A stretch of DNA of 64,000 bases. Origin: a virus. Position numbers and translations under genes: made by a program. Positions 5,378 through 24,094 of the stretch are shown here, in pieces. The DNA lies in IMG/VR virus record IMGVR_UViG_3300002542_000355, positions 11,781 to 75,780 of that record; one strand, given 5' to 3'. The notes beneath the pieces are model-generated. The model saw only the letters and a list, made by a program, of their open reading frames with translations, ran no database searches and had not been told where the DNA came from. How positions within the stretch are numbered: position 1 is the stretch's first letter; each line of letters begins with the position of its first letter.

Positions 5378-5453
5378 CTTTATTTGCTCCCTTCTGTTAA
5401 AATGTAGATTTTAACAGGCACATAGTAATTATACTATGTGCCTGTTATGGTTA

Positions 5454-8665: not shown

Positions 8666-8738
8666 CGCAACCTAGACCGCTGTTATATGCGGTCTAACGC
8701 TTCCGGCTTAATGCGCTGTTTAGAGTCGCCGGAACGAC
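8666..8738 (-). ncRNA. pistol self-cleaving ribozyme
   Basis: Minus strand reads AGUCG UUCCGG CGACU CUAACAG CGCA UUAA GCCGGAA GCG UUAGACCGC auauaaca GCGGUCUAG G^U UGCG. P1, the loop pseudoknot (UUCCGG/CCGGAA), P2 (CGCA/UGCG), P3, and the conserved UUAAG, GCG and G^U are all present. Confidence 0.88.
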
Positions 8739-8740
8739 TG

Positions 8741-11234: not shown

Positions 11235-11470
11235 TTATTCCGCTTTTTCTATCCCCTTGCATTATTATTTTTATTCTTCTTAAATAACTTCACTCCACGT
11301 TTTGCCATGTTTAAATAATAACCATTGTTCTAAAGTGTCAAAAAACATATCAAGTTCTTTGTCATAAAAACCTACATTTTTATCATGTTCTAATTTATCC
11401 ATATCTTTTAAAATAATTGTTTTCATTATTATTTCTCCCTTCTTGCAAGGGGACAGAAAAAGCGGAATAA
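11235..11470. repeat. 27-bp inverted repeat (11235-11261 and 11444-11470) flanking a 48-aa ORF
   Basis: ttattccgctttttct(a/g)tccccttgca versus its reverse complement; the single difference is a G-U pair in the minus-strand RNA. Confidence 0.85.
11280..11426 (-). CDS. small hypothetical protein (48 aa), first ORF of the early transcript
   Basis: Not in the ORF track. RBS AAGGGAG; MKTIILKDMDKLEHDKNVGFYDKELDMFF..EVI*. Confidence 0.65.
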   Translation of the reverse strand: MKTIILKDMDKLEHDKNVGFYDKELDMFFDTLEQWLLFKHGKTWSEVI

Positions 11471-11980
11471 TGTGGGGGTTGTGCCGGACTCCTACCGTGC
11501 CTATATGATACGAAATAAGCGTACCCTTTCAAGTCAGATAGCTGACTAGGGGCTTTTTTGACGGTATATCTCGCTCATACAGTCGCCTCCGTGGACTCCC
11601 CAGGTTCCACGAAGTGCTGCCACGCTGTTTCGTGTACGGACAGCCTGTCCACATTTTGACAAGCTGTTGTAACGTGGATCGCCGTTTCCACGCACGCGAA
11701 TAACTCGCGTGTAAATAATATTTTATTTTCAAAGATCAGCCCTTGCGCCGTTCAGCTTGCGCTGTTCAGCGACTTCCCCGGATGCTAGTGCAAGCTATCT
11801 TGCGTTCGCATCCTGCCAAGTAACTATGTAGGGAATTGATTCAGCGTGCTAGACGTTTTCAATGTCTTCCCCTTTGATCGGATTCGTTGCCGTCCGTATC
11901 GCTTGATACGGTATAAGCAGTCCGAGCAGGGAGGGAAAGTGATTGTCGTCGTTGCTGTTGTTCAATTCCTTTTATTGTTT
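11430..11980 (-). ncRNA. long structured 5' leader RNA with boxA-like motifs
   Basis: GC-elevated, hairpin-rich stretch with no credible ORF, between a strong promoter and the first RBS; GAUCUUUGAAAA at 11737-11726 and GACAUUGAAAAC at 11866-11855. Confidence 0.6.
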
Positions 11981-11986
11981 GATTCA

Positions 11987-12015
11987 AATATAGCATGAAA
12001 TCGAAAATAATGCAA
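11987..12015 (-). promoter_or_regulatory. strong sigmaA-type early promoter
   Basis: TTGCAT-17 nt-TATATT with extended -10 TG and an AT-rich upstream region. Confidence 0.75.
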
Positions 12016-12019
12016 TAGG

Positions 12020-12810
12020 TTTTTTTATGTACTATTATATTTTATTTTTAAAATGTTTTTTATTAGTTTGTTGGTGTGTGATAGAATTTATTTATTATGT
12101 TTGTCTGTTGGTGGTATATATATGTTTATGTATGGTGGACATATGTTTATGATGGGTAGACATGTGTTTTTGTGGAGTGGATATGTCTTGCGACTCACGC
12201 GCCATGTTACATATACGATTTTGCCATATATTCCCATTTTCACATTCGGAATGCTTTTGCCATTTATAAATGATATTTACATTTCTTTCCAATCCTTCAT
12301 ACTATTTCTATACAGTCACTATATACTTACTGCTACTCACTTCACCCAATATACTTATACATATATAGGCAGTATTCAGCTATGAGGGGGGATAGTTTAC
12401 ATTCATTTTTACCATTTTTTACCAAAATGTGCCCCTAGCACTTCCATCCCCACACCCTAAAATTTCAATCCACGATTACTCATATTTACCATTTTCTACC
12501 ACATTTTTCCCAAAAAATAATCGTATCACACATCGTAAAAATCCCATTATATCAACAAATTTCATCTCCACCAAATCACCCTAAAACTCCCCATATCACC
12601 ACTATAATATTTCAAAAACCTTGTCACATCAACAAATATACGATTTATCCACTATATCCACAATTATATAACATGCTCGCTACTCCAAATTTTCTTTTAA
12701 TATCAACAATTATTGCTTATTTCATTCTGCAAAAAATCTTTTTTGCGATAACACAAAATCCTACCATCGATCACAATTTTATAATCCCTCTACAAATAAA
12801 AAAACGCCTA
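12020..12810. other. low-complexity, strand-asymmetric non-coding region
   Basis: TG-rich (12050-12200) then G-poor, C/A/T-rich (12390-12810) on the plus strand; no credible RBS-led ORF. Confidence 0.5.
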
Positions 12811-22911: not shown

Positions 22912-23090
22912 CACTCCCCACACCTAAAGGCGGGGGATTCTTGGATGATTAACGCACTCATGCATTTCTGCTTCATGCAATCTCCAAGTTAAGGGCTGTG
23001 TCATCAGCCCATCCTAAGACAGACCATATAGGTTCTTAGGCTGACAGACTGTTACCATCTGTCACAGGTTGACGCATAATATTTATCGCT
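22908..23090 (-). ncRNA. omega (re)RNA of TnpB; 5' end approximate
   Basis: Structured region overlapping the tnpB 3' end and ending at the right-end TCAA. Confidence 0.6.
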
Positions 23091-24094
23091 CCAACCTGAT
23101 CTCGATGTGTTTTGAATCCGCATGAACATTCGTATTTTCGATCATCTGCACGATTCCTTGTTCCACAACAAGGGCAAGTTTGCGAAGTATATGCTGGATT
23201 CACATATACAACTTTAATTCCTGCTAAATTAGCTTTGTACTCAATAAACTTTTGCAACTGATAAAACGACCAATTATGCAGATTCTTTGCGTTTTTACGA
23301 CTTGTTCTTGTCGTTTGGCGAATATTCGCCAAAATTTCGAGTTTAATTGCTGATACATTTTCTTTGATAGCAAAATTTATAATCTGTCTACTAATTTTAT
23401 GATTTTGATCTTTCATCCATCGACTTTCTTTGTTTCCTAGTTTCTTGATTGCATGTAACTTTTTAAGTTTTCCTAATTTTTTTCTACGTGATTGGTATTT
23501 GCGACGAATATATTTTATTTGTCTACCGTTACCAAAAAATCTAGTTTTACCTGTTGATGTTACACATACAGCAGGAACTTTTAATCCAAGATCAACACCC
23601 ATTATATTTTCACTATTAACATCTTCTTGTTCTGGAATCTGAATTGAAACTTGAGCATACCATTTGCCTGATTTTTCAACAATACGCATAAGACCAAGTT
23701 TAGATTTTTTAATTAATTTCATATCTTTCTCTGTTGGAATGGCTTTAAAATACGTTTTCTTTGTTTTACCGTTAATAGAAATAGGAAAAGCAATCGCATT
23801 ATCTAAAATTGTATAGTTTTGATTATTAATATAATACACAGGTTTTTTAAGTACAGATAACTTTTTAGTTTTTCTATATTTATTAAAAACACTTTTTGCA
23901 TCTCTAATTGCTTGATTACAAATAGCAGATGGGAGTGATGTTTGGATATTTTTTGTCGTGATTTTCGGAAATGAATCATTATCAACTGCTTGTTTTGTTA
24001 ATTGATTTACAATTTTAATATATTCTTGAGATAATTGTTTCAATATAATTGGATTAGTTGGAAAAAATCTTATTTTGATTGTTAGTGATTGCAA
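23036..24094 (-). CDS. tnpB: RNA-guided endonuclease TnpB
   Basis: RuvC motifs GVDLG, IKLE and RDQVGAINI; zinc finger CPCC..CSC. Confidence 0.95.
   Translation of the reverse strand: MQSLTIKIRFFPTNPIILKQLSQEYIKIVNQLTKQAVDNDSFPKITTKNIQTSLPSAICNQAIRDAKSVFNKYRKTKKLSVLKKPVYYINNQNYTILDNAIAFPISINGKTKKTYFKAIPTEKDMKLIKKSKLGLMRIVEKSGKWYAQVSIQIPEQEDVNSENIMGVDLGLKVPAVCVTSTGKTRFFGNGRQIKYIRRKYQSRRKKLGKLKKLHAIKKLGNKESRWMKDQNHKISRQIINFAIKENVSAIKLEILANIRQTTRTSRKNAKNLHNWSFYQLQKFIEYKANLAGIKVVYVNPAYTSQTCPCCGTRNRADDRKYECSCGFKTHRDQVGAINIMRQPVTDGNSLSA

Follow-up and report, generated by a model that had tools for sequence, protein, structure and literature searches.

A conserved structured leader RNA with an rRNA-operon-type boxA precedes an operon of a predicted SPbeta-like phage

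The leader of Bacillales rRNA operons is built of a small hairpin, the boxA AUGAUCUUUGAAA and the processing stalk of 16S rRNA. In B. subtilis, AUGAUCUUUGAAA is the consensus of the rrn leaders, lies just after the small hairpin and binds NusB, as shown by NMR (PMC13753749, mBio 2026). The binding of NusB to rrn boxA was reported only in 2026; antitermination by boxA and Nus factors in Gram-positive bacteria is still an open question, and for the rRNA operons there is no direct evidence of it even in B. subtilis (PMC13753749). In the literature we met no report of a boxA in Bacillota other than those of the rRNA operons. Among phages, T7 is described as placing an antitermination element of the boxA kind after its early host promoters (work of Savalia et al. 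2010, cited in PMC3709561). Lambda nut, which contains a boxA, HK022 put and EAR are further cis signals in nascent RNA which modify the elongation complex. In the pLS20-type plasmids, conAn2 is an RNA of 260-600 nt in which one patch is GC-rich and an inverted repeat of 20 bp flanks about 240 nt (PMC8191782). Here we describe a phage leader RNA and compare it with these systems.

The leader lies in a stretch of viral DNA of 64,000 nucleotides, called the window below, in which minus-strand genes extend from about 17950 down to 1. Since the window is syntenic with three contigs related through their integrase (L023-L025), sharing HU, PhoH, YonG, YonK and a YonO-like polymerase, its carrier is, judged by gene content, a large SPbeta-like temperate phage of spore-forming-type bacteria. 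These three contigs have no copy of the leader, and the element is also absent from SPbeta, which has no leader-type boxA (AF020713). The features discussed are the following:

12823-12802, minus strand: terminator-like hairpin, which ends the genes preceding the promoter (integrase, RecD2-type helicase and two 257-aa proteins); the promoter comes about 800 nt further on
12015-11987, minus strand: predicted sigma-A-type promoter, with -35 TTGCAT (12015-12010), a 17-nt spacer, the TG of an extended -10 (11995-11994) and -10 TATATT (11992-11987)
11969-11832, minus strand: module D1, closed by GGAAUUGA/UCAAUUCC in the MFE fold, with a CA-rich 5' strand
11866-11855, minus strand: GACAUUGAAAAC, second boxA candidate, inside D1
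11817-11774, minus strand: module D2, a two-tier hairpin whose AUAG loop is invariant, with GGGGAA after it
11738-11726, minus strand: rrn leader-type boxA UGAUCUUUGAAAA, with an A/U-rich spacer behind it
11712-11637, minus strand: variable hairpins CACGCGA/UCGCGUG, CGUGGA/UCCACG and ACAGCUUGUC/GACAGGCUGU
11636-11468, minus strand: D4 core, a multi-helix fold of about 170 nt common to the window and two relatives (L003, L018)
11470-11444, minus strand: 5' arm of the 27-bp long-range stem
11426-11280, minus strand: ORF-A, the first gene of the operon, 48 aa, with its ATG at 11426, enclosed by the long-range stem
11261-11235, minus strand: 3' arm of the long-range stem

Walking from the neighbouring proteins led to three relatives of the leader, L003 (an IMG/VR contig), L015 (a Logan contig) and L018 (an ENA contig which is cut in the middle of the leader, with the 5' end missing); L017 is a 100% identical copy from another sample. 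All of them are metagenomic phage contigs. The family consists of three full-length lineages (the window, L003 and L015) and the partial L018, in several large collections. The full-length versions agree in the position of the promoter, in the long, folded and untranslated leader behind it, and in a long-range stem which encloses ORF-A. With the leader as query, BLAST of phage and plasmid collections gave no match, a search of viral contigs with the flanking 257-aa protein found nothing, and scanning contigs from viruses, genomes and metagenomes for exact motifs returned the L003 contig only, besides chance matches in coding or high-GC sequence. When ORF-A was used for a profile search, 20 proteins were retrieved, of which only P0004, encoded on L018, added a new leader; five contigs (L019-L021, L033 and L034) have a homologue of ORF-A and no leader. 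The covariance model of the D4 core, R1, found no copy among the collected sequences beyond its own three source sequences.

The promoter at 12015-11987 had been called a consensus promoter in the original prediction. This overstates it, as the -35 box agrees with the consensus at 3/6 positions and the -10 box at 5/6, and the site is of the extended -10 type; in a promoter scan it was not among the top listed sites. The equivalent place is occupied by TTGCGT-17-TATTAT in L003 and by TTGACG-17-TATAAT in L015. Transcription is predicted to start near 11980.

The minus strand from 11985 to 11430, ahead of ORF-A, is a real, conserved, structured non-coding leader of about 550 nt with no Rfam family. 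Its GC content is raised (0.47 at 11601-12000 vs about 0.30 in nearby DNA), and its MFE of -191.8 kcal/mol compares with -150.3 +/- 6.3 for shuffled sequences (z -6.6). The other full-length leaders also fold beyond their shuffles, with z -3.5 for L015 and z -2.3 for L003. Which strand is the RNA? Because the opposite strand of the region folds about equally well (z -5.8), the folding energy by itself carries no information on this. The promoter, the orientation of the genes and of boxA, and the conserved helices, in which we counted 19 G.U cells and no A.C cells, point to minus-strand RNA; by the same G.U pattern, promoter and boxA orientation, a DNA-level or opposite-strand reading is disfavoured. 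A coding reading is ruled out because the open reading frames in the leader differ between the versions, none being conserved between the window and its relatives, and because the substitutions are compensatory. The nested hairpins listed in the original prediction are all present on the minus strand, and its proposal of an uncharacterised structured leader was borne out. It had also suggested a search of Rfam and a test of covariation in homologues. The leaders of the window, L003 and L015 matched no Rfam family at gathering scores, with put, EAR, GOLLD, ROOL and others absent even at E up to 10, and the collected relatives have compensatory changes in D2, D4 and the long stem. No tRNA or tmRNA was found by a dedicated search.

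The conservation of the leader is modular. D1 is present in the window and in L015, with its closing stem at the same place, and is missing from L003. D2 was found in all three full-length leaders, with compensatory changes in 9 of its 13 pairs, while the variable hairpins at 11712-11637 are replaced by other hairpins in L003 and L018. The D4 core has 48 pairs, 16 of them changed on both sides, a covariation which comes from three sequences and is modest in depth and clear in direction. Its cells are paired in 98.6% of cases, compared with 32-43% when the partners are slid, and 0/500 shuffles reached the observed values. Between the leaders of the window and L003, 22/79 pairs show covariation. 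In D4 the covarying helices are separated by the invariant single-stranded stretches CGUCAAAAAAG, UUGAAA and CACAAC, and the 3' hairpin exposes an invariant SD-like loop, UAGGAGU, with no start codon behind it; a GGG/CCC helix closes the multi-helix domain. R1 scores its three source sequences at 183-194 bits and does not recognise the unrelated 3' domain which replaces D4 in L015. The leader is thus a small, previously undescribed structured-RNA family with clear covariation. D4 also contains a CUAU-loop hairpin complementary to the loop of D2: in the window and in L003 the apical loop of D2, GAUAGC (11798-11791, minus strand), can pair with the D4 loop GCUAUC (11543-11536, minus strand), and L018 has the GCUAUC loop. 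The two loops may be in contact; as both are invariant, covariation is uninformative on such a kissing interaction. We also considered GGGGAAAGUCCAUGC of L003 as the CR-I region of RNase P and rejected it, as it has no P4 partner, gives only an 8-bit hairpin match and does not occur in the window.

In the long-range stem, leader and trailer pair over 26-28 bp (-40 to -48 kcal/mol); the duplex covaries and is present in four lineages, and in L018 its distal half has an entirely different sequence. The homologues of ORF-A inside this stem are 73-85% identical, and more distant ones occur without any leader. Within the 5' arm (window 11470-11432, minus strand), the pyrimidine tract CCCCUU can pair either with the RBS of ORF-A (AAGGGAG) or with the 3' arm, a choice also found in L003, L015 and L018, and these alternative pairings may form a translational switch. 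The relatives have a further local pairing open to them, between the end of the 3' arm and a copy of the 5'-arm word downstream; it gives an alternative hairpin, which the window does not have. The pairing words are GCGGAAU/AUUCCGC in L003 (4061-4095) and L015 (3310-3340), AGCGG/CCGCU in L016 (166-205) and GACAG/CUGUC in L018 (551-580). Words of the same family as the stem arms form another inverted repeat, UUAUUCCUGCUAU ... AUAGCAGGAAUAA, between two genes further downstream, at about 7755-7700 (minus strand); it may be a stem for processing or regulation which recurs in the operon.

About 245 nt past the predicted start, in sense orientation, the window reads C-UGAUCUUUGAAA-A. By its sequence this is a real boxA, equal over 13 nt to the rrn leader boxA of Bacillales, the group whose leaders served as the standard here; the boxA of the phage's own host may differ. 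The 12-mer UGAUCUUUGAAA has a single occurrence in the 64 kb (128 kb of strand), where 0.06 would be expected, and was present in 6/100 shuffles of the window; scaled to one strand of the 550-nt leader, the expectation is about 0.0003. The looser boxA pattern of the original prediction is not significant across the whole window. Compared with the NusB-binding consensus, which is that of B. subtilis and may not be that of the host, UGAUCUUUGAAAA agrees at 12/13 positions, and the boxA of L015 is AUGAUCUUUGAAA exactly (13/13). Among the plasmid-borne rRNA operons of Bacillales which we used for comparison, the identical UGAUCUUUGAAAA precedes 16S at a distance of 134 nt (Paenibacillus polymyxa) or 82 nt (Bacillus badius), and P. 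cellulosilyticus and Peribacillus simplex have one-base variants of it. The similarity of the phage leaders to the rrn leaders is confined to these 13 nt. In the MFE fold of the window, the CUUUG of boxA is within a weak 5-bp hairpin.

How well is the motif kept within the family? L015 retains boxA and the A/U spacer with different neighbouring hairpins, whereas the leader of L003 has no boxA within 3 mismatches and reads CACAUUGACAAC at the corresponding position; as the L018 contig is cut upstream of this place, retention was judged on the window, L015 and L003. The motifs of the window and L015 are shared by descent and therefore count as one origin, not two. The original prediction named two boxA motifs, and both sequences are there. 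The one at 11738-11726 is truly of the rrn leader type; GACAUUGAAAAC in D1 is not credible, since the CUUU core is missing, the sequence is partly paired in the MFE fold and neither L015 nor L003 has a counterpart. The Bacillota rrn consensus, quoted there as GUUCUUUGAAAA, also needs correction, as the consensus of the B. subtilis rrn leaders is AUGAUCUUUGAAA (PMC13753749); ahead of its 16S, P. cellulosilyticus has a variant UGUUCUUUGAAAA.

Compared with the described systems, the locus is most like a Bacillales rRNA operon leader. Both have the identical 13-nt boxA in sense orientation behind a sigma-A promoter and hairpins, a long untranslated folded RNA and a long leader-trailer duplex, and the layout of the phage element (promoter, hairpins, one rrn boxA, folded RNA and a 27-bp leader-trailer stem) follows that of an rRNA operon leader, with the 48-aa ORF-A in the place inside the stem where 16S would sit. 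There are also clear differences. The phage stem encloses this small gene and not rRNA, about 270 nt of an unrelated fold separate boxA from the stem, the likeness in sequence is limited to the 13 nt, and there is a single boxA with no spacer copy. In T7, too, a boxA of the host rrn type lies behind promoters of the host RNA polymerase and no N protein is involved (PMC3709561). T7 is, however, a virulent coliphage with an E. coli-type boxA, and the text consulted (PMC3709561) describes no large conserved fold beside it. Lambda nut has its boxB after boxA, whereas in the phage leader the hairpins precede boxA and an A/U-rich stretch follows; no boxB/N pair was recognised.

The operon behind the leader also contains RNA elements. 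The only Rfam family in the window is a pistol ribozyme at 8666-8739. Hammerhead-like motifs of the form CUGACGA ... GAAAC ... GCGGGAAGCCGCA lie between small GC-rich genes (window 9420-9330 and 10560-10490, minus strand), and a similar motif follows the leader in L018 (830-900, 1135-1215); Rfam does not call them at its gathering score. A simple scan of the minus strand beyond the leader found no canonical intrinsic terminator; 8360-6600 and 5480-5200 were in addition read directly. The gene for a 395-aa DUF3560 protein is immediately followed by a hairpin made of a perfect 16-bp palindrome (hairpin at 5412-5447); since a U-tail is lacking on the minus strand, this hairpin may serve for processing or stop transcription in both directions. 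Given the long processing-type stem and the ribozymes downstream, expression of the operon seems to be organised mainly through RNA.

What could an rrn boxA do in front of such an operon? The reading we favour, at a probability of about 0.45 and thus tentatively, is that the element is an rRNA-operon-style leader, with hairpin, boxA and a stem like the processing stalk, which recruits Nus factors. Loading of Nus factors is the most likely role of the 13-mer because of the rRNA-leader-like order of the elements and the printed precedent of T7, and through its leader boxA the phage probably borrows the machinery with which the cell transcribes its rRNA. The nascent boxA would bind NusB:S10 of the host, which in turn would load an rrn-type Nus complex on RNA polymerase, and this complex would shield the long leader and the operon, as punctuated by the pistol ribozyme and presumptive hammerheads, from premature termination, chiefly of the Rho type. 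It may also help the RNA to fold during its synthesis, and the long stem would be a likely site for RNase III, separating leader from message. Because the scan found no canonical terminator downstream, a need for read-through is not evident; we hold it more plausible that the 0.55-kb leader and the operon cut by ribozymes would be protected from Rho, or that folding of the RNA during transcription would be assisted. A leader with the rrn 13-mer is a compact natural reporter for the Gram-positive boxA/Nus question.

More questions are raised by L003, which keeps D2, D4 and the stem without boxA. It follows that boxA is dispensable for whatever the fold does and that recruitment of Nus factors does not explain the large D2/D4 fold. 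Could this fold be a new class of RNA which, together with boxA or in its place, reprograms the Gram-positive elongation complex? It spans about 330 nt, is closed by GGG/CCC, includes the possible GAUAGC/GCUAUC contact and is kept where boxA is lost; we regard this idea as unlikely. If it were true, the whole unit would be an rRNA operon in miniature, with the phage putting the rrn machinery for antitermination and chaperoning to use for a polycistronic RNA processed by ribozymes, and it would provide the first non-rrn target of the Nus-boxA complexes of Bacillota and a handle on their function.

Alternatively, the leader may mainly govern processing, stability and translation, with boxA secondary. 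The stem would then be an RNase III site, the UAGGAGU loop a 5' stabiliser, and the 5' arm a switch between the RBS and the 3' arm. Several of our observations suit this: at 26-28 bp the conserved, covarying duplex has the length needed by RNase III, the pyrimidine tract has its two partners in all four versions, the SD-like loop is invariant with no start codon to serve, and the pistol ribozyme brings ribozyme cleavage into the same operon. However, it leaves unexplained why a 13-nt rrn boxA should be retained exactly and why about 330 nt of conserved fold should lie upstream of the stem, and every step of the processing is conjectural. We think it unlikely that processing is the main function.

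In another account, D2 and D4 are themselves a cis antiterminator which contacts RNA polymerase or elongation factors, in the way of put, EAR and conAn2, and boxA is optional. It is the fold and not boxA that all lineages keep, as L003 shows, and conAn2 offers a parallel in its size, GC-rich patch, inverted repeat and position (PMC8191782); like the phage leader, it is a large, poorly conserved RNA heading a long operon of a Gram-positive mobile element. Yet the comparison with conAn2, which was by description and not by sequence, also reveals differences. conAn2 follows the conAn1 gene and needs the conAn1 protein for its long range (PMC8191782), and no boxA has been reported in it, whereas our leader directly follows a promoter with no conAn1-like gene seen ahead, and its inverted repeat encloses ORF-A and not the RNA core; the leader thus does not have the bipartite organisation of conAn (features from PMC8191782). 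Put and EAR are far smaller than the phage leader (PMC8191782) and neither gave an Rfam match. In addition, L015 has a different 3' domain which R1 does not recognise, and the simple scan of the minus strand found no downstream terminators that would have to be passed. We therefore hold this account to be quite unlikely.

Less probable still is that cleavage of the stem frees the leader as a stable phage ncRNA which acts in trans, for example as a decoy or anti-defence RNA, comparable to other ornate RNAs of phages. A closed multi-helix domain with its GGG/CCC closing helix and complementary D2 GAUAGC and D4 GCUAUC loops, followed directly on the 3' side by a cleavable stem, would suit such an RNA. 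But with three lineages in several large collections the family is very small, and its domains are swapped between relatives, which fits a cis leader better than a machine-like RNA. Finally, it is very improbable that D4 is a riboswitch-like element which senses a ligand or protein and gates the operon. Its conserved multi-helix junction, with invariant single-stranded stretches between covarying helices, would suit such an element, but D4 is tied to no terminator or clear platform for RBS sequestration, is replaced by an unrelated domain in L015 and matches no Rfam riboswitch.

Some further observations concern DNA outside the leader. Just upstream of its promoter the window has direct repeats (about 12100-12150, minus strand, CATAAACATAT twice), and upstream direct repeats are also found in L025 (13500-13860, about 20 copies of CTTATAAC) and in L015 (2310-2360, GTGGACA twice). 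These repeat words, specific for each phage and located at one shared place, look like operators or iterons. Three phages share GTAAACTATCCCCCC, which lies some 400 nt ahead of the promoter in DNA that has otherwise diverged (window 12385-12400, minus strand; L003 3045-3060; L015 2130-2143). Elsewhere in the window, among phage structural and DNA genes, a 352-aa TnpB/Cas12f-like protein is encoded at 23036-24094 (minus strand), with the Pfam domains OrfB_IS605 and Cas12f1-like TNB.
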